Positions 3,434-26,639 of a DNA stretch of 53,531 bases are shown in pieces. The DNA lies in UHGV virus genome UHGV-0350075; one strand, given 5' to 3'. Numbering within the stretch: position 1 is the first letter of the stretch; each line of letters begins with the position of its first letter. The translations under genes and the position numbers were made by a program. Below the pieces are notes generated by a model. That model was not told the DNA's origin, did not search any database, and was given only the letters and a program-made list of their open reading frames with translations. Origin of the DNA: a virus.

Positions 3434-3696
3434 ACGCCGAACATCCCATTCAGTCCGGCGAACAATTTCCGCCAGTGGTCTTCAACATAAGCCCGGAACG
3501 GCTTAACGCGAACATTGCGGGCCTTCAGTTCAATCTTGTCGAAGAAACGCGGCTCTATAATTGTTCCGTCCAGATATTTAACCAGGATCGGGCGCTCAAG
3601 ATCGTTATATGTCTTGTTCAGCACAACCAGACCAGGGTCTTTACGGTATTCCGGGAGCACAACAAGATCACCCGTTTTGATATTCATGAATGGCAT
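3424..3696 (-). CDS. hypothetical protein
   Basis: Track ORF 3424..3699 begins on GTG; ATG at 3696 (MPFMNIK...) preferred, overlapping upstream stop (TGATG). Confidence 0.45.
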   Translation of the reverse strand: MPFMNIKTGDLVVLPEYRKDPGLVVLNKTYNDLERPILVKYLDGTIIEPRFFDKIELKARNVRVKPFRAYVEDHWRKLFAGLNGMFGVWL

Positions 3697-3812
3697 CACA
3701 TCACCCCGCCGATATAGCTAATAATTGCCGCAGTCGCGCCAGCTATTACCACCATGAAGACGAAAGCGACCACACAGAAAACAGCCTTGACAGTATTTTT
3801 GTCGACTCGCAT
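3696..3812 (-). CDS. hydrophobic microprotein (38 aa, MRVDKNTVKAVFCVVAFVFMVVIAGATAAIISYIGGVM)
   Basis: Own translation; SD-like TGAGGT upstream; fills gap between annotated genes. Confidence 0.35.
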   Translation of the reverse strand: MRVDKNTVKAVFCVVAFVFMVVIAGATAAIISYIGGVM

Positions 3813-3819
3813 ATAAACC

Positions 3820-3927
3820 TCACATGTCAGTAATCAGCTTAACAATCGCCACAGTGATATAGAGTGACGCACTAAGGTAAACAGCCGCCACAGCAACGGC
3901 GGCGGATAACATTGCAATCTTTTTCAT
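3820..3927 (-). CDS. hydrophobic microprotein (35 aa, MKKIAMLSAAVAVAAVYLSASLYITVAIVKLITDM)
   Basis: Own translation; ATG 3927 overlaps stop of 3924..4148 (ATGA); GGAGGGTGG SD. Confidence 0.35.
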   Translation of the reverse strand: MKKIAMLSAAVAVAAVYLSASLYITVAIVKLITDM

Positions 3928-4148
3928 TTGCCACCCTCCGCAATGAACTTATCAAGCCATTTGTTATTAGCCAGCCGTTCGGCATCTTCGCCGAATGATT
4001 TACGTTCGCTTAATTCCTGTCGAGTAGGGAAAGGCCATTTATCAACCCAGCCCGCAGACGTCTCGAATTCGTACAGCCCGCCGCCGAAAGTGATAAGCTC
4101 ATCAGCGCCGTCAGGAATTTCTCCGTCAACTTCTTTATCTTCGATCAT
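3924..4148 (-). CDS. hypothetical protein
   Basis: Track ORF 74 aa. Confidence 0.45.
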   Translation of the reverse strand: MIEDKEVDGEIPDGADELITFGGGLYEFETSAGWVDKWPFPTRQELSERKSFGEDAERLANNKWLDKFIAEGGK

Positions 4149-15684: not shown

Positions 15685-18600
15685 TTATTTTTCGCTTCCG
15701 GTCAACTGCCGGACAAGCGCTTCAAGTTTAGTGATCCGCTCATCCATGACGGCAATGTTAGCGCGTAAGCTGGCGTTTTCTTCCTCCAGTTCGGTGACGC
15801 GGTTATCTGTTTCGCGTGCCACCTGGACAAGTAAACCAGTCACTGCCGCATAATCAACGTTTAGGTAACGCGTTTCTTCGCGTAGCTCGTTGCCGTCAAT
15901 GGTCGGGCCTTGTAATGCTTCACCGTAATGAGTAAACGATCCCACTGCTTCCGGTAGCGCCTCCATGACCTCCTGAGCGATAACGCCAGCGTAAGGCAGG
16001 CCATTTTCCTTAAGCGTGTAGGTGTACCCGTTCATTTTACGGATTGCTTCAGTAGCATCGCCTATAACCTGAATGTTGTCCTTCAGGTCGCGGTCTGAAG
16101 ACTGGTTTACTGTTACGCAGTTTACAGCCCCGTTAACCTGAAAATGACATGAATCATCCGTGTTTTGCTGCGCGTAAAAAATCCATGAAAGTGACGCGTT
16201 TGTGTCTGGATCTTTTATCTTGCACTCAAATACAGTTGGGCGGCTTTCTGCACCCCACAAATAAAGCTCACCATTTCTTACCGCTGAATTTGCGACGGCT
16301 AAAGTTACTTTTCTTGTGTAAGTATCAGAGAAAAACTCCGTCGATTTAAATTGTTGGTATCCAGTCCACCTTTGCGAAGATGCGTTAAGCGTAGCAAGTT
16401 GACACCAGCCTTTATCTACTCCGCCCTCAAAACTTCTGGCGTAGAATTTTGAATTACGTCCGACGAATTGGGTGGCGTAGTTACCGCTAAAGCCAACATG
16501 AAAGCCGCCATAAACTACATTATTTTCCGGTGTATTTGTTTGACCAGCAATAGGTTTAAACTTGCTTACGTTGTCTGATTGTTGTGCGTTCCAGTCTTGA
16601 TCTGTATATGTTGCAACTCCGTTAGCTGGCTGTATAGTTCCGTTTGATTTGATAACCTGATAAGAATCACCATATTTATTGCGGTATGTATCAGTGCAAT
16701 AAAACCCTGTTGCACTCGATGTGAAATCAAGTAAGTTATTGCTAATGCCGTAAGTGTCTAAATCAATACCATCAGAGGAATTAGTGATACCCCATTTATA
16801 AGTCGGGCTATCTGCTGTGTTAGTTGGCTTCCAGTCTGCTGTAGGTATTGTTACAGTACATCCAACCGTAACAGCGATGCGAATGGGGAAGGCATCACCG
16901 CGAACATAGATCGCGTTATGCGGATACTGCCCTTTATCAGTACCGCGAACGCAAAGTATCGCGTTTTCATTGTTTGCGTAACAGAAATAATGACCAAATA
17001 CAGCCGCACCCATATCTGACCAGCCACCATCACGTAACCATAAATGAATTGCGTTACAGTTAGGATCTCCACTGCCAGATATTGACTTAGTTCTCATTGC
17101 AACTTCAACAAGGAAATCGCCGTTATAGTGTGAAGGATGGCTGACAATTACAGGGTAATATTTACCAGCTTCAGCACCAGTAGGGGCGTTGTAATCAACC
17201 CAATGCGCAATACCTGCAAACGGGATTTGCATATTGGTTTTAGTTTGTTCAAGGTTTGTAGGTACTGCAATTGCATTGACTTTCAGGTTAGGTACTTCTA
17301 TTTCATCCCTTGCATAGTTGTAGCTCATTGAATAGCTTGTATTCGTACCGTCATATCCGTCTTTCTGAATACGCCAGTTACCACCATCAAAGATAAGGCT
17401 ATAGTAAGGTGTATTTGATGGCCGATCCGTTTCGTTGAATCTGATGGTAGGATGAGCGCTTGATATTTCTACGGGGTAATTAAAATTAGCTGTTAATCTT
17501 ACACGCCTACCTATAAAATCACCGCTATTTAAAGAAAAGTCGCCGTCTTCGCTTAATCCTGCGTATTGGTTTTTATCTCCACTCTGTAGGTGAATTGTGG
17601 CCCATGATTTACCATCGCCACGGAATTCTGAATAAAAACGCGCTCGCGCTCTTTGTGCGCCTGATGCATCATTAAGAATGCTTTGTAAAATACCGCCTGC
17701 CGTGGTTGCGACATCTGACGACCTAACAAGGTTAAGGTTTGTAAATTGCGGGCTATCAGTAAAATCAAGAGACTGAAATTTCTTCCATGCGGTCCACTCC
17801 CAACCAGAAGAGGAAGACTGAATGATGTGCTGGCGCATATAAAATGTACCAGTCGTGGCATTGTAAGGGAAATAAAGCTGCGTGCATCCTGCGTTACCGT
17901 TCGCATTATTTCTAATAACAAGCAATGCTCCCGCACTTGATACAGGATAACCGCGCGCAGTCGTGGCATTTACGTTTAACCCCTGGTAATAAAAACCGGA
18001 ATACTCGCCAGTAAGCGTATTAATATCTGTGGAACCTAGATCTGATTTTTTCTCATACATAACCTCAAGGTTTGTGCGTGCTTGTCCTGCGTTACCGCCA
18101 CCAGTGCCACCATAATTTAATCCCAATGGAAGCGGGCCTGATTCAGTTCTAGCTCCCCATGCTGCGTTACTTATGAATAGATAATTAGTTGATTCGCCAG
18201 CGTAAAGCTGCGTTTCAACTGTGTAGTTATAAAGCCTTGATACTTCGTCTTTTCTTACGTGCCTTGTCCATTGCGGTCCTATGCTGCTCGACCAACGATA
18301 GGTATACAGGGATCTTGTATTCCATCCCTGGAATATACCCGTATATGTAGGAGAACCATCGCAACCGCTAATAAAGCCTGTTAAGTACGCTTCACCTGAA
18401 GCAATGGACGGAAAACCAGTTGCCGATTCACGAATACGCATAAAGCCAATATAACCGGATGGATTGCCTGAAATGTCAGGACAATCGCGCGGCGATGCGC
18501 CAAGACCGATATTGTCGCCTACAATACCTTGCGCCTGGTTGCGATAGTTAAGCGCGGCGGCGGCGGATTGCGCCGCATTTGTCTCGCTGGTAGCTGCCGC

Positions 18601-19140
18601 CGTTTTACTGTTGCTTGCTGATGTTTCGCTGGCTTTTGCTGCATCCTGTGACGCTTTCGCTGCGGTGGCTGAGTTTGCTGCCGCTGTTTTTGATGCCGCT
18701 GCCGCGTTTTTATCTGATTCAGTTTTTTGAGCGTTGGCGGTTGATTGCGCTGTTTCTGCGCGAATGTCGGCAAGAAGCTGATCCATCTGACCATCTCCGC
18801 CGAAATCTTCCCACCACTCGACGGCGGCGGCGATCTCTGTTTCCTGGCCCTGATAGTAACGCAGTGTTTCGGCTACGTCCTGAGCAAGCCCATCAACTGA
18901 GATCGAGTCAGATAGCAGAATGCTAAATTTTGTCCCGGCAGGGATGGCAGGATTAGCCGCTGGCGTTACTGATAATTCAGTACCGCTCTTAATTTCGGTG
19001 ATAGTGAAAATCTGTACCGGATTTCCAATGGCAATGAGCGTGCACCCTACACGGATGAGAGAAAGCGGCGCGGAAAAGTTTGTTCCCGTACCTGTAACAG
19101 TATTGCCGCTAACGGCAATTGTTCCCGTTGTATAAATCAT
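15685..19140 (-). CDS. side tail fibre protein with C-terminal intramolecular chaperone (S74-like) domain
   Basis: 1151 aa; lambda Stf-like Ala/Ser/Thr-rich N-terminal repeats; C-terminus SDRDLKDNI plus coiled coil as in endosialidase chaperone domains. Confidence 0.8.
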   Translation of the reverse strand: MIYTTGTIAVSGNTVTGTGTNFSAPLSLIRVGCTLIAIGNPVQIFTITEIKSGTELSVTPAANPAIPAGTKFSILLSDSISVDGLAQDVAETLRYYQGQETEIAAAVEWWEDFGGDGQMDQLLADIRAETAQSTANAQKTESDKNAAAASKTAAANSATAAKASQDAAKASETSASNSKTAAATSETNAAQSAAAALNYRNQAQGIVGDNIGLGASPRDCPDISGNPSGYIGFMRIRESATGFPSIASGEAYLTGFISGCDGSPTYTGIFQGWNTRSLYTYRWSSSIGPQWTRHVRKDEVSRLYNYTVETQLYAGESTNYLFISNAAWGARTESGPLPLGLNYGGTGGGNAGQARTNLEVMYEKKSDLGSTDINTLTGEYSGFYYQGLNVNATTARGYPVSSAGALLVIRNNANGNAGCTQLYFPYNATTGTFYMRQHIIQSSSSGWEWTAWKKFQSLDFTDSPQFTNLNLVRSSDVATTAGGILQSILNDASGAQRARARFYSEFRGDGKSWATIHLQSGDKNQYAGLSEDGDFSLNSGDFIGRRVRLTANFNYPVEISSAHPTIRFNETDRPSNTPYYSLIFDGGNWRIQKDGYDGTNTSYSMSYNYARDEIEVPNLKVNAIAVPTNLEQTKTNMQIPFAGIAHWVDYNAPTGAEAGKYYPVIVSHPSHYNGDFLVEVAMRTKSISGSGDPNCNAIHLWLRDGGWSDMGAAVFGHYFCYANNENAILCVRGTDKGQYPHNAIYVRGDAFPIRIAVTVGCTVTIPTADWKPTNTADSPTYKWGITNSSDGIDLDTYGISNNLLDFTSSATGFYCTDTYRNKYGDSYQVIKSNGTIQPANGVATYTDQDWNAQQSDNVSKFKPIAGQTNTPENNVVYGGFHVGFSGNYATQFVGRNSKFYARSFEGGVDKGWCQLATLNASSQRWTGYQQFKSTEFFSDTYTRKVTLAVANSAVRNGELYLWGAESRPTVFECKIKDPDTNASLSWIFYAQQNTDDSCHFQVNGAVNCVTVNQSSDRDLKDNIQVIGDATEAIRKMNGYTYTLKENGLPYAGVIAQEVMEALPEAVGSFTHYGEALQGPTIDGNELREETRYLNVDYAAVTGLLVQVARETDNRVTELEEENASLRANIAVMDERITKLEALVRQLTGSEK

Positions 19141-19201: not shown

Positions 19202-19299
19202 TTTTTGACGTATACAAAATGTATTTATTGATTTATGTCAATGTTGCGTAAATGCGGTTTATGGATACTACAAACAACGAAACAACGGAGGGTAAGACA

Positions 19300-19539
19300 A
19301 TGAAAGGCTTTAAAAATATCGCTATCGCTGCAATGGTTGCTGGTCTGGTTGGTTGTGCTGATATGCCGAAACGTGAATGCACGGCAATTTATCAAACTGG
19401 CGGTAATGAATATGTGGTTGCAGTCTTCGGTGTAGCGGACGCTGGCGGTCACAAAATGGTTAAGGCCGGGTATCCGTTTAACTTCCAGTGGGTAAGCGTT
19501 GATCACTTTAAGAAAACAGATTGCCCGGAATTGAATTAA
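19300..19539 (+). CDS. lipoprotein (moron; possibly Cor-like exclusion protein)
   Basis: Track ORF trimmed to ATG 19300 after GGAGGG SD; signal peptide with lipobox LVGC; opposite strand to surrounding tail genes. Confidence 0.55.
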   Translation: MKGFKNIAIAAMVAGLVGCADMPKRECTAIYQTGGNEYVVAVFGVADAGGHKMVKAGYPFNFQWVSVDHFKKTDCPELN

Positions 19540-20168
19540 TCATAGGCATTGGTTTTAATGGCGGTGATAGCGTTCCCGTGGTTGATGTAGCCAGTAGGAT
19601 TAAATACGCCGCCAGCCGTAACACCGTAGATTCTTGTGTTGCTGCCGTTATAATATGCGGCAGCATAAATTGATGCTGAACCTTGCCCAACCACCGCGCC
19701 TAACAATTGAGGACAAATTGCGTACGATCCTGAAAGTGTCTGATCTATATTTATACCTCCACTATTACCTGGTGAACCGACTGTAACAATGTCTGTTAAT
19801 ATTCTTGATTCATTAGTTAACACCAGTTCCCCTGAAGCGTTCCAGATAGCCATCCCCCATTTAGGGAGCGAAGGCGGGAAAATAGAAAACACATATACAG
19901 TAGCAGTATATGTATTGTTAGTATCCCTACCAAAAGCGCAAAGTATCTGTCCAGAGTTAGCCCTGCTAACGCTTGCTGTGACACCGCCTATACTTGTTTT
20001 TACAAATACCATTACAGGCTTGTTTGTTGGGACTGTAATGTATCTTGATGTGTTTTGCGTTGGTGGACAAGAAATAGCTTGCCTTGTGTATAGACACATA
20101 GGCGTCGCTTCCGGTGTAACGAAAATATTCCCGTTACTTAATCTCAAATAAGCTCCGAATGTTGCCAT
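19536..20168 (-). CDS. hypothetical tail-associated protein
   Basis: Track ORF 210 aa downstream of J; Gly/Ser/Thr-rich. Confidence 0.5.
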   Translation of the reverse strand: MATFGAYLRLSNGNIFVTPEATPMCLYTRQAISCPPTQNTSRYITVPTNKPVMVFVKTSIGGVTASVSRANSGQILCAFGRDTNNTYTATVYVFSIFPPSLPKWGMAIWNASGELVLTNESRILTDIVTVGSPGNSGGINIDQTLSGSYAICPQLLGAVVGQGSASIYAAAYYNGSNTRIYGVTAGGVFNPTGYINHGNAITAIKTNAYD

Positions 20169-20512
20169 TAAGCCGCCTCCGCAAATATAACAATTTCACA
20201 CTGTGATGCGGGCCATATATTGGCCCCTACTGTATTACCTGCCGATGAAATTGATACAGTTCCGCCAGAAATTGTAATCCTTCTACGCGTCGTTGATAAC
20301 GTACCATAATCAAGCGTCATGCCGTATGATAATTTGCATCCGGTAGGAACGGTAAAGCTATATGTACCTGATACTTGTCCTGAGGATAGTGAAATATAAC
20401 CAACAACTACTGACGGTTTGATTCCGTAGTTATTTGGATTTCCGTTAGCATCCCAGGTGGCTATGCCGAAAGTAGACATAATACCCCTCCTTAACAGACT
20501 AATACCGAGCAA
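20168..20512 (-). CDS. hypothetical tail-associated protein
   Basis: Track ORF 114 aa immediately downstream of J. Confidence 0.5.
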   Translation of the reverse strand: MLGISLLRRGIMSTFGIATWDANGNPNNYGIKPSVVVGYISLSSGQVSGTYSFTVPTGCKLSYGMTLDYGTLSTTRRRITISGGTVSISSAGNTVGANIWPASQCEIVIFAEAA

Positions 20513-20527
20513 GTTGGCATCTTAATT

Positions 20528-23500
20528 CTACCATGATCCAGTAATTCGACCAATTTGTACGCGCAACCTACCGTTTCCATCCCTAACGGAAATTGTTGTA
20601 TTTGTTAGTTTCATCGCGCCCTCACCACTTACAGAACCGTAGTTTTCAAATGTGCCTGATTTATCCAGCTTCCAGCCTGTGCTATTGGAAACATAGTTGT
20701 TTGATTGAATGTATGAACCAATTTTTGCATTAGTGATTGACGCGTCTTTAATAAACGCTTCACGCACATATATTGCACCATTTGTGACATAGAATGGAGA
20801 CTGATATGTTCCGTTTGCCGCAGTCATTAACACGAAGCGGTCAACAAGGAAAATACACTGCGATTGAACGTTAGTACCGCTACCAGTCAGGCCAAGTGAC
20901 ATACCTGTTGCGTATTTTTTGCCGTTGTTGTCGGTGGCAATCTTGATTGACCATGACGCATCAACGTTACCTTTGAAGTCAGTTAACGCTTTCGATGTCG
21001 TCTCGATCGCCGTGGTGTTCCCGTTAACTGTTACTGTAAGCTGATCAATTTTGGTTGATAATGCCTCGTCCGCAGTTGTCATGGTCTGCGACCATTCCGT
21101 GATGCTTGAGTTTACAGCTTCGAAAGACGCTGAGATCTGGCTGAATTTTTCCGCGCTTGATGCTTCATGCGTAGAAAGTGCTGTTGATACTTCAGATACT
21201 TTCGAATTAATCGTACTGGTAAGCGATGAGTTAAGGCTAATTATTGCGTCTGTGCGTGCCTTTGTCTCATCTGCAATAGCTTTGTCGATACGGGTCACAT
21301 TGCTTGTAACCTTGCTATCAAGCGTGCTGATGCTTGCATTCACTCCGCTGATAGCTTCAGTTCTTGCGCTCGTCTCATCTGCGATGGCTTTATCAAGACG
21401 AGAAACACTTGCATCTGTTTTGTTTTCAAGGCTGCTTATTGAGGCATTTACTCCGCTTATTGCTTCCGTTCTTGCCTGCGTTTCGTCAGCAATTGCTTTA
21501 TCTATACGCGTAATGTTGCTCGTTACTTTAGAATCAAGCGTGCTGATGCTGGCGTTCACTCCGCTAATTGCTTGAGCACGCGCGGCGGACTCATCAGCTA
21601 TTGCCTGATCAAGACGATTAACGCTGGCTGTTGTGCTGCTTTCCAGTGTGCTTATGCTGGCGTTAACATTGCTAATGGCTTCAGTTCTTGCCTGTGTTTC
21701 GTTTGCAATAGCTTTATCTACTCGCGCTATCTCGCCTTTGATGTTTGAGTCCATCGTGTTCATCTCTGCGGTGATAGTTTCAAGCGCTTCTGCTGTTGCC
21801 TGTTTTTCGTCAGCAATAACATTGTCTATACGGTCGATTTGCGCTTTAGTCTCACTGCGCCCTTTCTTGTATTGAGCGGTAAGAGTGACGCGCGTATTAG
21901 TTTGAGCAAGCGAATTATTGATGAGCGCAAGCGATGCGTTTTGTAGGCTTGCTTTTGTCTGTGCCAGTTCGTTATCGACGTTTTCGCTTGATACCTCTAA
22001 TGAGTCTATTCTTATCTCATGTTTGCCTATTTCATCGGCGTTTTCTTCGACTTTTTTATAAAGGTCTTCAGTGTCTTTTTTAAGCGCGTCTGTGTCTGTT
22101 TTAAGGTCATCTGTAGCTGTTTTAAGGTCGTCTGTAGCTGTTTTAAGGTCTTCAGTTGCACTTTCGATAATGTCAGTGCGATCCCCAAGATCCTTAATGT
22201 CGCTTACCATTTCCTTAAATTGTTCTGAATTCATCACGTCTTTGGTGACGTAATCGCTAATTTCATCAAAATTTTCTGTCGGCTTACCTGATGCTTCAAC
22301 GAAGTCTGACACGCCAAAAGCATTACGTGTACGCACATAAACGTAATAAGTATGGCCCGTGTTCATTCCGCCGAACGTCCACTGATACCCGCGCCCGGTA
22401 AACTGTGCCGCCGTGGTTATTTTTGCCGGATCTGTGATCTGGTTTTCCCCTGCATAGTAGAATTCATACGCTGTATCAGTGGTTAGCGTTGTCTTACTTA
22501 TCGGGTATACGGTCGCCTGGAATACACCTGGTACCCAGTTAACACCTATTGGCGCGGCTGGCGCACCAATAACAAGGTCAACGATACTTTCGGCACCCTT
22601 CATGCCAGTATCATTTCTTCCGCGAACCCCTAAAGAATACACGCCAGCGTCAATGCCATAAAAATCATAACTGTATTTCGTTGTTTCATAGCTTTTAACC
22701 ACCGCACCATCTGCATTATATATGCGGATCTCAAAGGTCATACGATGTGTTGTTGTCTGTGTTTCCCATGTGGCGCGGCATTGAACCGTTTCAGATCCAA
22801 TGTTTACCACCTTCAGATTTTCAATGTTCGGCACGCGGAAATGATTAAGCGTATCATTGTTGACCTCAAAGATTGCGCCTTCATCGACTATCGCTTGTTT
22901 GTTAGGGTCGTGCTGTGCGGCCTCGATGGTGTATACGCTGTTATTTTCGGTTTCTGCTACGCTGGTGATCCGACACAAAACAGGTTTTGCCGCTTCAGTG
23001 GATACAGCGAAAACAGTCCCGTTACGTATCCATGCCGGGGACGCCGCTAAGGTGATCTCATTTCCATTTACCCCGGTGATCTGGTGTTTCTTAAATTTGC
23101 CATCACTATCAAGCAAACTAATGGTATCGCCTGCGGTGATGTATTCCGAATCAACCTTATCGACCGTTATCACCTTGCCATTGTTCGCCACGATACGACC
23201 GCCTAAACGAGCGCCTGCGCGGTTATTGTCGAGGATCTCGATAATATCCCCTGGCGTAAAGTGAATCGCGTCACGTGCCATTTTAAACGTGAATTTTGAC
23301 GGCTCGCGTTTTGCTGTTTCTATCAGCCACTTGCCCGCGCGGTATGCTTGCCCGCGTGATGTGCACCCGAACGCCTCTAACGTGGTTTCGTTGTAACCAT
23401 CACGGGCGATCAGTTCATCATCTGCTACATACTCTTTTGATTGCTCCCAGCCGTTTCCCGGGTCAGTCCATGATACGATAACGGCGTTGTAGCATTCTGC

Positions 23501-24679
23501 GCGGGCGATACTTGAACGAGTAAACGCGCCATCAACGACATTTGCATTTGTAATGGTGGCGATCGGGTCTTGTGGTGCATCAATCATCACGGTAAGGCGT
23601 TGCCCGTCCCATAACGCGATACCCCTGAACATCCCGGCGATATTGTCCAGTAAGTCGCGGGCGCTCATTTGCTCTGTGATGTAGGCGTTAAGCGTCATGC
23701 GAGGCTCAAGGCCGCCGTAGCCATCATCAACCAACTGGTCGCAGTATTGAGAAAGCGTATATAATGCGCCGTCGTCAACGTCAATATAGCCAGCGTGACG
23801 AGCAAGGCCGAAACGCTCGTTTTTAACCAGATAGCGGAAGATCCATGCTGGGTTATTGGTGTACGCCTGTTTGAAGCCGCCAAGCCACAAACCGGAATAA
23901 GTGCGCTTTTCCGGGTCGTAGTTATCAGGAATATCAACAATCAGCCCGCGAAGGTGATAGGTGCGGGTAGGCGTGTCAGCGTACTGATCATGGTCAATTA
24001 CCGCGCCAGCTACAGCGGTGTGAGGATAAGACAAATTATCGTCGATTATTTCGCTGTAGCTACTCCATCGCGTATCATTCTGCAACAGATCGCTTGTGCT
24101 ATCAGCGGTTACACGGCGAACGCGAATATCAAACGGTTTTTCATCTGGTGCATTGATAATATGCGCTTCAAGATATTCTCCGCTGATCTTACCTGGGCCT
24201 ATAGTAACGTCTTTAACAAGCGTCCACGTAGAAGAAGACGAAGGCTTCACGTCAATCATCATCATAACCGATGTGTTATGTTGATTGCTTTGCTCGTCAG
24301 ATTGTACAAGTGAATCGACGCCGATATTCAGGCGAACGCGGTTTACGTTAGGATCGGAAACGGTCCTGATTATTGGTGTATCGTGTTTAACCTGTGCGTT
24401 AACAATAACGGTTGATTCAATGGCGTTAAAACCGTTAATCGGTGATTGATCTATCGTACCATTGCGCCACGCTACGCTAATACCGGGGATGCTGGTATTG
24501 CCGTTCGCGTCAGTTACAGGGGTGTCATTAAGCATTACGCTGTTTAATGGCGCATTGGTATTAACAGGACCATAAATCGGACCTTCTGAAATAATGTCGA
24601 GTACACGATAAAACTGTTTGTGATATAGATTATCGTTAATTAAAGTTGGTGTTTTTGCTTTGCCGCCGCCGCTACTCAT
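20528..24679 (-). CDS. J: host-specificity / central tail fibre protein (lambda J-like) with extended repeat-rich C-terminus
   Basis: 1383 aa; N-terminal ~900 aa collinear with lambda J as recalled (DIISEGPIYGPV, YHLRG, PAWIFRYL, SQYCDQ, GGLEPRMTLNAY); C-terminus differs. Confidence 0.85.
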   Translation of the reverse strand: MSSGGGKAKTPTLINDNLYHKQFYRVLDIISEGPIYGPVNTNAPLNSVMLNDTPVTDANGNTSIPGISVAWRNGTIDQSPINGFNAIESTVIVNAQVKHDTPIIRTVSDPNVNRVRLNIGVDSLVQSDEQSNQHNTSVMMMIDVKPSSSSTWTLVKDVTIGPGKISGEYLEAHIINAPDEKPFDIRVRRVTADSTSDLLQNDTRWSSYSEIIDDNLSYPHTAVAGAVIDHDQYADTPTRTYHLRGLIVDIPDNYDPEKRTYSGLWLGGFKQAYTNNPAWIFRYLVKNERFGLARHAGYIDVDDGALYTLSQYCDQLVDDGYGGLEPRMTLNAYITEQMSARDLLDNIAGMFRGIALWDGQRLTVMIDAPQDPIATITNANVVDGAFTRSSIARAECYNAVIVSWTDPGNGWEQSKEYVADDELIARDGYNETTLEAFGCTSRGQAYRAGKWLIETAKREPSKFTFKMARDAIHFTPGDIIEILDNNRAGARLGGRIVANNGKVITVDKVDSEYITAGDTISLLDSDGKFKKHQITGVNGNEITLAASPAWIRNGTVFAVSTEAAKPVLCRITSVAETENNSVYTIEAAQHDPNKQAIVDEGAIFEVNNDTLNHFRVPNIENLKVVNIGSETVQCRATWETQTTTHRMTFEIRIYNADGAVVKSYETTKYSYDFYGIDAGVYSLGVRGRNDTGMKGAESIVDLVIGAPAAPIGVNWVPGVFQATVYPISKTTLTTDTAYEFYYAGENQITDPAKITTAAQFTGRGYQWTFGGMNTGHTYYVYVRTRNAFGVSDFVEASGKPTENFDEISDYVTKDVMNSEQFKEMVSDIKDLGDRTDIIESATEDLKTATDDLKTATDDLKTDTDALKKDTEDLYKKVEENADEIGKHEIRIDSLEVSSENVDNELAQTKASLQNASLALINNSLAQTNTRVTLTAQYKKGRSETKAQIDRIDNVIADEKQATAEALETITAEMNTMDSNIKGEIARVDKAIANETQARTEAISNVNASISTLESSTTASVNRLDQAIADESAARAQAISGVNASISTLDSKVTSNITRIDKAIADETQARTEAISGVNASISSLENKTDASVSRLDKAIADETSARTEAISGVNASISTLDSKVTSNVTRIDKAIADETKARTDAIISLNSSLTSTINSKVSEVSTALSTHEASSAEKFSQISASFEAVNSSITEWSQTMTTADEALSTKIDQLTVTVNGNTTAIETTSKALTDFKGNVDASWSIKIATDNNGKKYATGMSLGLTGSGTNVQSQCIFLVDRFVLMTAANGTYQSPFYVTNGAIYVREAFIKDASITNAKIGSYIQSNNYVSNSTGWKLDKSGTFENYGSVSGEGAMKLTNTTISVRDGNGRLRVQIGRITGSW
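21240..22150 (-). repeat. coding tandem repeats in J 3' region (~108-bp units x5; 21-bp units x3 at 22088..22150)
   Basis: Repeated units RIDKAIADETQARTEAISGVNASISTLDSKVTSN and DLKTATD seen in protein and DNA; forward-strand shadow ORFs arise here. Confidence 0.6.
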
Positions 24680-24693
24680 GGTTATTTCTCCTG

Positions 24694-25224
24694 TTAACTT
24701 ACAACGTCTAAGGCGTCTTTATTGTTTGTTGTGTCTATGCCTAACGATCCGACGTTTGAACCTACTTTCATTTCACCCAATAAAATTGGCACTGGTCTAC
24801 CCTGGCCCACCCTGTTTTCTATGCTGGTGTAACTGTTGTTTGTTATGGTGTTATCCTGTGCGCTTTCTGATGATGTTTTCACCTTCATGTTGCGAGACAT
24901 GAAAATAGAAAATGCGACACTAACAACTGATATTCCGATCATAATCCAACCGACCACACCGATCCCTGCAATACCACCTTCCACTATTGGCGCAATAATT
25001 ACCGTAGTCCCATCTGGATATTTGCTATTAACCGCAGCGGGCGCGGTCTTTTCGTCGTAATCTTTCCCGGAAATTCGTAAACGCAAAGGTGTATTTAAAA
25101 ACGCCTTCTTGAATTCCTGATTCTGCGCGGTCAACAAGCGAAGTCCTTGCGCTGGCGTTTCAACGTTTAAACACACTTTGCTGTAATATCTTCGAAGATT
25201 GCCCGTAAATCTAAATTTGAGCAT
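24694..25224 (-). CDS. I: tail assembly protein (lambda I-like)
   Basis: 176 aa; position between K and J; C-terminal hydrophobic segment as in lambda I. Confidence 0.6.
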   Translation of the reverse strand: MLKFRFTGNLRRYYSKVCLNVETPAQGLRLLTAQNQEFKKAFLNTPLRLRISGKDYDEKTAPAAVNSKYPDGTTVIIAPIVEGGIAGIGVVGWIMIGISVVSVAFSIFMSRNMKVKTSSESAQDNTITNNSYTSIENRVGQGRPVPILLGEMKVGSNVGSLGIDTTNNKDALDVVS

Positions 25225-25898
25225 TTATCAGATCTCCATATTGAATGCGTTTGTCGAACATAAGCGGGCCGCATTTGCTCGCGGCGGCTTAGCAGTCCGG
25301 CATTGTCATGATGCAAAACAGTGTTATCGCCCAGGTAAATCATCGCGTGGCATGGGTCCGCGCCTTTAAACGGCTGCCGGATAATTACATCTCCAGGCTG
25401 TATGCTTTTAGCGTCAACCTGGAAAAACCCGTTTAGAGGCAAGTTTTTTAAATACAGGTTTTCACCACGCAACCACCACCCATCAAGGCGCTCGAAGTCA
25501 GGCAGATCCACGCCGCAAAGGTGATAGGCGTCGCGGAAAAGCGCGTAGCAGTCTGTTTTCCCGTGTTCAAATTTTCTGCCTAACAGGTGCGCTACCGGAC
25601 GGAATTTCCTGATCCTTCCGCCTGAATACAAAAGCCAGGGTAGTCCTGAAATAACCTGCTGTTGTCGATCCCGTGCCGACAATACCGGAATATCATCAAC
25701 GTGAGAGTGAAAAACGGCGGTTATAACGCCCAATTCGTCAGCTTTGATGTAATCGTCCGGCGAAATTTTGAAGCTGTTGTAGGGCGTTTCAGACACGTTA
25801 GCGCACGGGTAAAAATATTCGTTATCTATTACCAGTCCGCAAACTTCTTCAAACGGATGCGCGGCGGCATAACGCAACATTTTGTCTTCCATTACCAT
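25167..25898 (-). CDS. K: tail assembly protein (lambda K-like; JAB/MPN + NlpC/P60-like)
   Basis: Track ORF trimmed to ATG 25898; JAMM-like HSHVD motif; follows L stop by 3 nt. Confidence 0.65.
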   Translation of the reverse strand: MVMEDKMLRYAAAHPFEEVCGLVIDNEYFYPCANVSETPYNSFKISPDDYIKADELGVITAVFHSHVDDIPVLSARDRQQQVISGLPWLLYSGGRIRKFRPVAHLLGRKFEHGKTDCYALFRDAYHLCGVDLPDFERLDGWWLRGENLYLKNLPLNGFFQVDAKSIQPGDVIIRQPFKGADPCHAMIYLGDNTVLHHDNAGLLSRREQMRPAYVRQTHSIWRSDKCSNLDLRAIFEDITAKCV

Positions 25899-25900
25899 GA

Positions 25901-26605
25901 TTAACCTACCTTGCTGGAACCAGGGAAACAGGAAATCGGTAACGGATTTGGACGCGGGAAACGCAAACGACAACCGCTTAGACGGTGGCTGCATCTGTCG
26001 GCTTTAGGATCGCTTGTCGGCTCGTCTTTATCGTTTGCTACTGGTCCGCCAGCGTACATACACCCGTCGCCTCTGTATTGCCACTGGCAAACGTCAGCAA
26101 GGATGGTGCGCCCAGGGATAACGGCCTTATCAGCATCAATTGGCGTTGACAGCTCATATTGCACCTGATCCGCTGTTTCCTCGCTCATGGCCTCCACGAC
26201 GTAAAAAGATACAGCCTCAATAGATGGATCTGCATCTGGATTGCCGTTTGGGAAGTTAACGGCGTCCAGGTATTTTACTTCCACCTGGCGGCGCGTAACC
26301 TTCATTCCTCGCAGGTCGTTGAAGTCGTTATTCATCCCTGTGATTAGCCCGCCGATATTGGCTACAACCATTTGAGGCCGCGAATAAACGCCCTCGTTTT
26401 TCATTTCGAAGCCAGTAGCCTCGATCGGGTAGCTGTTGTAAGTTAATCCCTTCCAGATAACCGGGCCGTAATAGCCATTCGCGCCGGAATGGAAGCGGAT
26501 AACCTCGCCACCCAGGGGCGACAAGTCCAGTTCGAACAAGTCAATCACCGCGCCCACACCAGCGTCCACGGAATCAATAATCATCTCTGTAGGTATATTG
26601 CGCAT
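25901..26605 (-). CDS. L: minor tail protein (lambda L-like)
   Basis: Track ORF starts on GTG 26638 inside a regulatory palindrome; ATG 26605 with AGAAGGTGAG SD preferred; CxWxYRGxxC motif (CQWQYRGDGC) as in lambda L. Confidence 0.75.
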   Translation of the reverse strand: MRNIPTEMIIDSVDAGVGAVIDLFELDLSPLGGEVIRFHSGANGYYGPVIWKGLTYNSYPIEATGFEMKNEGVYSRPQMVVANIGGLITGMNNDFNDLRGMKVTRRQVEVKYLDAVNFPNGNPDADPSIEAVSFYVVEAMSEETADQVQYELSTPIDADKAVIPGRTILADVCQWQYRGDGCMYAGGPVANDKDEPTSDPKADRCSHRLSGCRLRFPRPNPLPISCFPGSSKVG

Positions 26606-26623
26606 TTTCTCACCTTCTGATTT

Positions 26624-26639
26624 TGTGATCTGCGTCACG
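26624..26639. promoter_or_regulatory. CRP-like site TGTGATCTGCGTCACG
   Basis: 9/10 match to TGTGA-N6-TCACA, immediately upstream of L SD. Confidence 0.4.

Follow-up and report, generated by a model that had tools for sequence, protein, structure and literature searches.

What is a long array of tandem repeats doing inside the protein at the tip of a phage tail? The question is raised by gene J of the virus genome UHGV-0350075, a stretch of 53,531 nucleotides (the window) in which J encodes a tip attachment or central tail fibre protein of 1383 residues. A first-pass annotation had noticed two families of coding repeats, with units of 36 and 7 residues, towards the C terminus of J. It described them as part of a coiled-coil extension different from that of phage lambda, liable to recombinational length variation and thus to host-range switching. 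We find it likely that the repeats build the extended alpha-helical shaft of a lambda-J-type central tail fibre, and that specificity lies in a separate cassette at its tip.

The N-terminal part of the protein establishes its type. Pfam searches place, above cut-offs, PF24801 (FNIII-A_GpJ, residues 88–214), PF13550 (Phage-tail_3, residues 335–492), PF24421 (Ig_J, residues 609–707) and PF24489 (Ig_J_second, residues 709–811) on J, and a fifth J-type domain follows the shaft (Table 1). Together with a phmmer match to lambda gpJ of solved structure (E = 4e-184), these domains bear out the description of the protein as J-like. The collinearity with lambda J that had been noted is also real, but extends to about residue 850 rather than about 900. 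The hub and the FNIII and Ig domains stand in the lambda order, and on these matches the protein can be assigned as a J-type tip attachment or central tail fibre protein. Its score against the NCBIfam model NF049904 (lambda_TipJ) is 729.7, under the 1950-bit cut-off.

In lambda, J runs from the hub through FNIII-1 and FNIII-2 into an alpha-helical shaft (residues 809–861), which is a 53-residue three-helix bundle, and then into the beta-prism central straight fibre and the receptor-binding domain (PMC11101478). Both ends of the window's stalk align with this shaft region: phmmer pairs window residues 801–850 with lambda 808–857, and window residues 1219–1322 with lambda 839–942. Therefore, the repeats belong to a block of ~370 residues inserted inside the shaft, after which the lambda-type sequence resumes, and not to a different, foreign C-terminal extension as had been supposed. 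Nor is the distal domain novel, since it consists of a conserved lambda-type central-straight-fibre domain, which also aligns with the F2 pyocin fibre and with T1 gp33, and of a 77-residue T1-like tip.

The inserted sequence has the properties of a helical rod. The stalk (residues 811–1225, 415 residues) contains no proline, and hydrophobic residues recur with a period of 3.52 residues in the heptads and of 3.60 residues in the 36-residue units, which have ten core positions each. AlphaFold2 (monomer, 16-sequence alignment) predicts helices over residues 819–887 and 901–1204, with predicted local distance difference test scores (pLDDT) above 90 across the repeats. The stalk is thus helical, proline-free and periodic within the 3.5–3.67 residues that mark a coiled-coil shaft. 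In addition, a profile of the stalk ends from eight group members matches residues 914–1102 of the F2-pyocin central fibre (E = 1.6e-14), the shaft of which is an experimentally solved three-stranded coiled coil (PMC13455828), and also matches T1 gp33 (E = 1e-11). The period, the AlphaFold2 model and the F2-pyocin match all agree with the earlier view that the repeat region is coiled-coil-like. By homology to the solved lambda and F2-pyocin shafts, we infer that the shaft is trimeric. Searches of the stalk alone against Pfam and NCBIfam returned no curated repeat family, only sub-threshold coiled-coil types (SMC, Rad50, Baculo_PEP_C).

At the DNA level, the periodicity lies inside J where it had been annotated, and exceeds shuffle maxima at the repeat lags. 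The 36-residue (108-bp) units follow the consensus S-T-L-D-S-K-V-T-S-N-I-T-R-I-D-K-A-I-A-D-E-T-x-A-R-T-E-A-I-S-G-V-N-A-S-I. Tandem Repeats Finder reports a period of 216 with 2.1 copies (21257–21720, score 501), and a repeat-family search reports six copies spaced exactly 108 nucleotides (21246–21832). In-frame autocorrelation over 21240–21890 reaches 0.60 at lag 108 and 0.634 at lag 216, against a maximum over all lags of 0.40 in 1000 codon shuffles. The unit length given earlier is right, and the count of about five becomes six in register, the first unit being degenerate (28–39% identity to the others). The remaining five share 50–78% mutual identity and belong to two subtypes in alternation, which accounts for the 216-bp super-period. 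The 21-bp repeats were likewise correctly spotted, but instead of three DLKTATD units we count four or five heptads (EDLKTAT DDLKTAT DDLKTDT DALKKDT EDLYKKV). Here, Tandem Repeats Finder gives a period of 21 with 3.5 copies and 88% matches (22078–22150), the repeat-family search gives five copies spaced 21 nucleotides (family D3), and the autocorrelation at lag 21 is 0.675 against a shuffle maximum of 0.587.

The units have been kept at the protein level. Units 4 and 6 have 28 of 36 residues in common but only 11 of 36 codons, which argues for purifying selection on the protein sequence of the stalk. Exact identity between the window's 108-bp units does not exceed 14 nucleotides and would therefore make a poor substrate for recombination within one genome. 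This degree of divergence indicates that the units are old and that the array is of low instability within this genome. We accordingly rejected the window's own array as an unstable one; its longest exact repeat measures 20 nucleotides and lies between heptads.

The relatives of the window present a different picture. MagusPhagus and the mEp021-group (“mEpimmI”) coliphages are 82–95% identical to it over J and the remaining window; the J gene itself is 82–94% identical at the nucleotide level to those of seven mEp021-group phage records, and window positions 25001–50000 are, over 70–83% of that segment, 86–95% identical to genomes of the group. On this similarity, the window can be placed as a new member of the temperate siphovirus group mEpimmI, and is an Escherichia coli phage. 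We assembled 18 full-length J genes from the window, seven phages and ten prophages of complete E. coli genomes, and counted the 36-residue units with a hidden Markov model (HMM) of the unit. Repeat number is far from invariant in this set, with 4–13 units and 3–9 heptads. That the C-terminal region of mEpimmI J holds “repeats of different length” was stated in 2025 (PMC11893012), and J repeats of differing length are thus already known for this phage group.

Three near-isogenic pairs locate these differences, all of which are in-frame and within the repeats. The J gene of mEp515 equals that of mEp021 minus exactly 1002 bp, with zero mismatches in the other 4182 nucleotides and with a crossover that adjoins a 35-nucleotide identical stretch. 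The J gene of 2017C-4173W12 equals that of LP-26 minus 216 bp (two units) with one mismatch elsewhere, and that of 09-00049 equals MagusPhagus J minus 108 bp with 99.1% identity elsewhere. In LP-26 (E. coli LP-26-E1-261), nucleotides ~3600–3970 of J contain a 259-nucleotide perfect direct repeat at lag 108, comprising several identical consecutive units, and therefore point to very recent tandem amplification. Relative to the window, its closest phage MagusPhagus lacks one unit. The suggestion of recombinational length variation hence holds for in-frame gain and loss across relatives, but not for the window's own array.

If the repeats vary in number, does the receptor vary with them? All 18 J proteins diverge directly after a conserved EAFIKxxSIxxAKI motif, and the at least six tip types among them assort independently of unit number. 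Within the group, mEp021 and mEp515 need OmpA, while mEp010, mEp013, mEp044 and mEp554 need LamB (PMC11893012). The two OmpA users have 13 (mEp021) and 5 (mEp515) units, and the LamB users have 5 (mEp013), 10 (mEp010) or 13 (mEp044 and mEp554). Since both sets of users span low and high unit counts, the receptor follows the tip and not the repeats, and host-range switching through the repeats is not borne out. The tip class of the window shows the same independence, occurring with 4 units in M15/Ecol_244, 6 in the window and 12 in UMNK88.

The tip of the window is of the T1 type, the last 146 residues of J aligning with T1 gp33 1028–1172 (E = 4.6e-49). Nucleotide similarity to the closest phages stops at ~20736, within the EAFIK motif. 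Downstream of J, a T1-type module (19252–20512) holds, on the same strand as J, two genes homologous to those for T1 gp32 and gp31 and, on the opposite strand, a homologue of cor, in the same order and orientation as in T1; the closest phage relatives are without this module and have other lipoprotein genes there. From these comparisons, it appears that an exchange at the EAFIK…AKI motif replaced the entire tip cassette. In T1-like phages, genes that follow J-like ones have been proposed to specify dedicated receptor-binding proteins (PMC8594841), and PyoF11 and PyoF12, analogous pyocin proteins, have been modelled on the pyocin fibre tip. Two small proteins, separate from J and encoded after it, probably carry out receptor binding. 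Because a T1-type tip and gp32/gp31/cor homologues occur here, and because the receptor of T1 is FhuA (PMC11945409), we predict that the phage is FhuA-dependent via small proteins docked on the J tip.

In the explanation that we favour, the two halves of a lambda-type bundle would be parted by ~370 residues, in which four to five heptads and a short break are followed by a lead-in, the six 36-residue units and a conserved tail. All of these would join in one trimeric helical rod, free of proline and roughly 55 nm long, and each added 36-residue unit would lengthen it by ~5.4 nm (at the 1.5 Å per residue of standard helix geometry). Unequal homologous or homeologous recombination, or slippage between units, would alter unit number and yield in-frame length variants that are still infective. 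Receptor specificity would lie outside the repeats, in the cassette that starts at the EAFIK…AKI motif. Homology to F-type pyocin fibres suggests that the shaft is probably also a metastable element that rearranges after receptor binding and opens the tail tip.

Several points weigh against this explanation. The trimer comes by homology, with a presumed parallel register, and the AlphaFold2 model is monomeric with pLDDT below 50 in the distal domain. The composition of the stalk is unusual for a stable coiled coil (S+T+N 31%, I+V+T 26.5%), and the 3.6-residue period of the 36-residue units differs from the canonical 3.5. The prediction of FhuA use relies on a resemblance to T1 proteins of ~45% identity and on Cor being encoded, and orf103 and orf210 have no sequence match among solved structures. 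The length difference between mEp515 and mEp021 is taken from deposited assemblies.

Four other accounts of the repeats have to be set against the helical shaft. The differences in copy number could be artefacts of repeats collapsed or expanded in short-read assemblies, and most C-terminal J homologues in databases are in fact partial proteins. Yet every length difference is in-frame, the differences are found in assemblies filed as complete genomes by many laboratories, and the repeat that flanks the 1002-bp difference of mEp021 is 35 nucleotides exact, which we judge too short to collapse a modern assembly. Moreover, the mEpimmI phages were reported with J of different sizes and with distinct restriction-fragment and structural-protein gel patterns (PMC11893012), and we consider an artefact extremely improbable. 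The repeats could also be host-range determinants, acting as adhesin-like binding sites or as copy-number host switches, which was the idea of the first-pass annotation. Variation by way of tandem repeats is known for receptor-binding proteins, and copy number varies widely here. This account is nevertheless very unlikely, given that phages with 5 or 13 units may use either OmpA or LamB, that LamB users may also have 10, that unit sequences are conserved across phages with different receptors, and that the repeat region is predicted as a buried-core helix. Closer to the shaft is a rigid or semi-flexible rod that acts as a passive spacer only, its length drifting or tuned for reach through O-antigen or capsule, with no triggering role. 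Otherwise identical J genes tolerate large length differences, stalk length and tip type assort independently, and the long flexible fibre of T1 has been proposed to aid receptor search (PMC11945409), all in keeping with a spacer. We nonetheless regard a purely passive role as doubtful, since the homologous shaft is active in tip opening in lambda and in F-pyocins (PMC11101478, PMC12874032), and since the strong amino acid conservation alongside saturated synonymous change, non-core positions included, exceeds what a plain spacer needs.

The remaining account extends the helical shaft rather than excluding it. Here, each 36-residue unit would be a three-strand module of a metastable coil, receptor binding would turn this coil into a beta-prism, the work of refolding would open the tip, and copy number (4–13 by recombination) would set the stroke or the stored energy. 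The precedent is the central fibre of the F7 pyocin, in which contact with a cell makes a 163-residue coiled coil refold to a beta-prism; SxSxxMxxLxS is found in each strand, killing depends on the switch, and a switch is predicted for 21 of 24 siphophage fibres (2026 preprint, PMC12874032). The stalk end of the window is homologous to the corresponding region of the F2 pyocin (the profile match described above), where we assumed that F2 and F7 residue numbering is comparable. Counting both orientations of the motif, the 36-residue zone has 16 matches, compared with 3.65±1.93 in shuffles; their phase within the unit is constant (9, 24 or 35/1), which gives three candidate strands per 36 residues. 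The heptads have zero such matches and the hub is at background. As controls, the F2 region has 7 matches with 2.0 expected (P = 0.005), T1 has 11 with 1.3 expected, and lambda has 0. A stalk rich in Ser, Thr, Asn, Ile and Val, that is, in beta-branched and small residues, would also fit a metamorphic segment without proving it. On the other hand, the units are copies of each other, so that the motif count is not independent (the test on a single unit gives P = 0.04), and our regular expression interprets the published pattern, whereas the authors used an alignment based on structure. The AlphaFold2 prediction (monomer, 16 sequences) was confidently helical and comprised that state only. Furthermore, a shaft of 300–750 residues would have to refold, far beyond the 163 residues demonstrated, and viability is retained in near-isogenic phages with either 5 or 13 units, so that function would have to tolerate large changes in stored energy. 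The two pyocin papers (PMC13455828, PMC12874032) make no mention of tandem repeats or of copy-number variation. We hold the fold switch as a tentative possibility. If it is true, mEp515 and mEp021 (5 versus 13 units in an otherwise identical J) are ready-made variants for following how stroke or energy scales with length.

The helical shaft also agrees with what is known of related fibres; in fact, the structural class of the stalk is already known from lambda, T1 and F-type pyocins. The nearest counterparts are the mEpimmI J proteins (PMC11893012), which share the domain order, both the 36- and 7-residue repeat families and the conserved stretch before the variable tip. The window has its six units and four or five heptads, and a T1-type tip with gp32/gp31/cor homologues, whereas mEp021 and mEp515 have OmpA-type and mEp010, mEp013, mEp044 and mEp554 LamB-type tips; the window's tip type is also found in the E. 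coli prophages UMNK88, Ecol_244 and M15. Lambda gpJ (PDB 8IYK, 8XCK and others) is collinear over the hub, FNIII, Ig_J and Ig_J_second for ~850 residues and continues likewise with a helical shaft and then a beta-prism, but its shaft has 53 residues compared with ~400 in the window. Lambda further carries a covalent C-terminal LamB-binding domain, whereas window J ends 77 residues after the EAFIK motif and has, by phmmer, no match to lambda residues beyond ~942, i.e., no such domain.

T1 gp33, with gp32, gp31 and Cor (PDB 9L9P; PMC11945409), resembles the window in its homologous tip, which ends in …RVQIGR(I/L)TGSW, and in the order and orientation of the downstream genes. It also has about four related repeats with an IADETxAR core and a long predicted alpha/beta fibre. 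However, its units measure 33 residues in a stalk of ~200, compared with 36 residues in a stalk of 415, its N-terminal hub is only 27% identical to that of the window, and T1 is a virulent member of the Drexlerviridae, whereas the window genome is of the temperate mEpimmI type. The F-type pyocin fibres (F2, PDB 25VF, PMC13455828; F7, PMC12874032) share with the window the J-like hub, the long helical shaft and the beta-prism. Both are without a covalent receptor-binding domain and have small proteins that are thought to dock on the tip, and the count of SxSxxMxxLxS-type motifs exceeds the shuffled expectation in the F2 pyocin shaft and, over units that are copies of each other, in the window stalk. 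Unlike the stalk of the window, the shaft of the pyocins has been described neither as a tandem array nor as variable in copy number.

Beyond these systems, an HMMER scan of 1.84 billion representative proteins with five units as query matched 142 clusters at E≤1e-3, 44 of them at E≤1e-10. Most matches have 1000–2900 residues and include J-like proteins with longer stalks (e.g., our P0017, 1922 residues), and unit spacing clusters at 33–40 residues. Judged from these matches, this kind of repeat is moderately rare and turns up repeatedly in long proteins, among them several J-type fibres, with the 36-residue period as one variant. A homologue search with the C-terminal 583 residues of J yielded only 16 matches, mostly to partial proteins, a sign that short-read assemblies may break in the repeats; for genomics, such fragmentation would probably explain the frequent truncation of this group's J genes in databases. 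Three partial homologues (among our P0003–P0012) have a precomputed match to Pfam PF28217.1, a domain that is not among the Pfam matches of window J.

For annotation, this region would be a length-variable helical shaft and not a receptor-binding domain, with the repeats setting the length of the rod and not which receptor the phage binds. Since the repeats are not receptor-binding, host prediction should use the tip cassette, which predicts FhuA. The phage group supplies natural J alleles that are otherwise identical and differ in shaft length, by as much as 334 residues (~50 nm from helix geometry), and these existing phages allow direct study of the tail-opening signal, or of a fold switch, across differing shaft lengths. 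The locus gains somewhat in interest from this series of near-isogenic length variants that occurs in nature, and from a possible connection to a fold switch.

Table 1. Segments of gene J and of the module downstream of it, with window positions and the evidence for each.
Feature	Residues of J	Position	Strand	Evidence
Gene J, tip attachment / central tail fibre protein	1–1383	20528..24679	minus	Open reading frame (ORF), Pfam, lambda J match
Lambda-J-like hub with FNIII/Ig domains	1–811	22247..24679	minus	Pfam; collinear with lambda J residues 1–857
Start of alpha-helical shaft	812–842	22154..22246	minus	phmmer alignment with lambda ~809–840; AlphaFold2 helix
7-residue heptad repeats (21-bp units)	843–877	22049..22153	minus	Tandem Repeats Finder, repeat-family search
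Only predicted helix break (GKHEIRIDSLEVS)	888–900	21980..22018	minus	AlphaFold2 non-helical, pLDDT 39–48
Conserved helical lead-in (…KASLQNASLALINNSLAQTNTRVTLTAQY…)	901–937	21869..21979	minus	Sequence comparison; AlphaFold2 helix
Six tandem 36-residue (108-bp) units	938–1153	21221..21868	minus	Repeat searches, autocorrelation, HMM, AlphaFold2
Non-repeated C-terminal part of shaft	1154–1218	21026..21220	minus	Conserved in all 18 relatives; profile match to F2 pyocin, jointly with the last units
Phage_Tail_Tip (PF09327), lambda-type central straight fibre (beta-prism)	1224–1361	20597..21010	minus	Pfam E = 2e-42
Swappable T1-type tip, 77 residues, from EAFIKDASITNAKI to …RVQIGRITGSW	1307–1383	20531..20761	minus	T1 gp33 alignment
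orf103, homologue of T1 gp32, candidate tip-attached receptor-binding component		20168..20479	minus	phrog_557 E = 3e-29; 45% identity
orf210, homologue of T1 gp31, candidate tip-attached receptor-binding component		19536..20168	minus	phrog_425 E = 1.7e-57; 44% identity
cor, superinfection-exclusion lipoprotein, lipobox LVGC		19300..19539	plus	phrog_1119 E = 6e-23; 49% identity to T1 Cor

Two of the smaller stalk segments deserve comment. The sequence of the helix break is conserved in those relatives whose printed sequence extends that far. In the F2 pyocin, a shaft kink at G955 is the site where side fibres attach, and on this parallel we speculate that the break could be a kink, a hinge or a docking site. 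The helical lead-in is duplicated along with repeat blocks in relatives with long stalks. Within the repeats, ORFs on the antisense plus strand (21051–21575, 21633–21875 and 22019–22228) have no PHROG match and were treated as spurious. A promoter and terminator scan found fewer sites than expected from shuffled sequence.

The genes around J show some further variation. The reading frame of cor is open from 19252, yet similarity to T1 Cor sets in only at residue 17 of the frame (MKGFKN…), just before the signal peptide and lipobox, and the start of cor is therefore probably M17 (window 19300). An extra gene for a protein of 311 residues lies downstream of J in mEp021 (our record L002, 1799–2734, mEp021_80), annotated as a virion structural protein, and in a prophage (L017, 3918–4853), annotated as a DUF6453 family protein. 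It accompanies the short OmpA-type tips of mEp021 and mEp515 (88 residues after EAFIK), and relatives with tips of 189–208 residues are without it; this distribution suggests that a short tip has a separate receptor-binding protein as its partner. On the other side of J, genes L, K (C40 peptidase) and I stand immediately upstream in relatives; the matching ORFs of the window (24694–25224, 25167–25994 and 25901–26638) are assigned by position only. Between I and J, and overlapping the start of J, mEp021 has a gene annotated as a putative HNH endonuclease (L002, 7951–8517), and mEp515 has the same gene as a hypothetical protein (L005, 6949–7515); the window and the other relatives are without it. 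The window also encodes a lateral tail fibre of 1151 residues (15685–19140, minus strand), with a C-terminal Peptidase_S74 intramolecular chaperone domain (residues 1015–1066) and an N-terminal region rich in Ala, Ser and Thr that may be coiled-coil-like.

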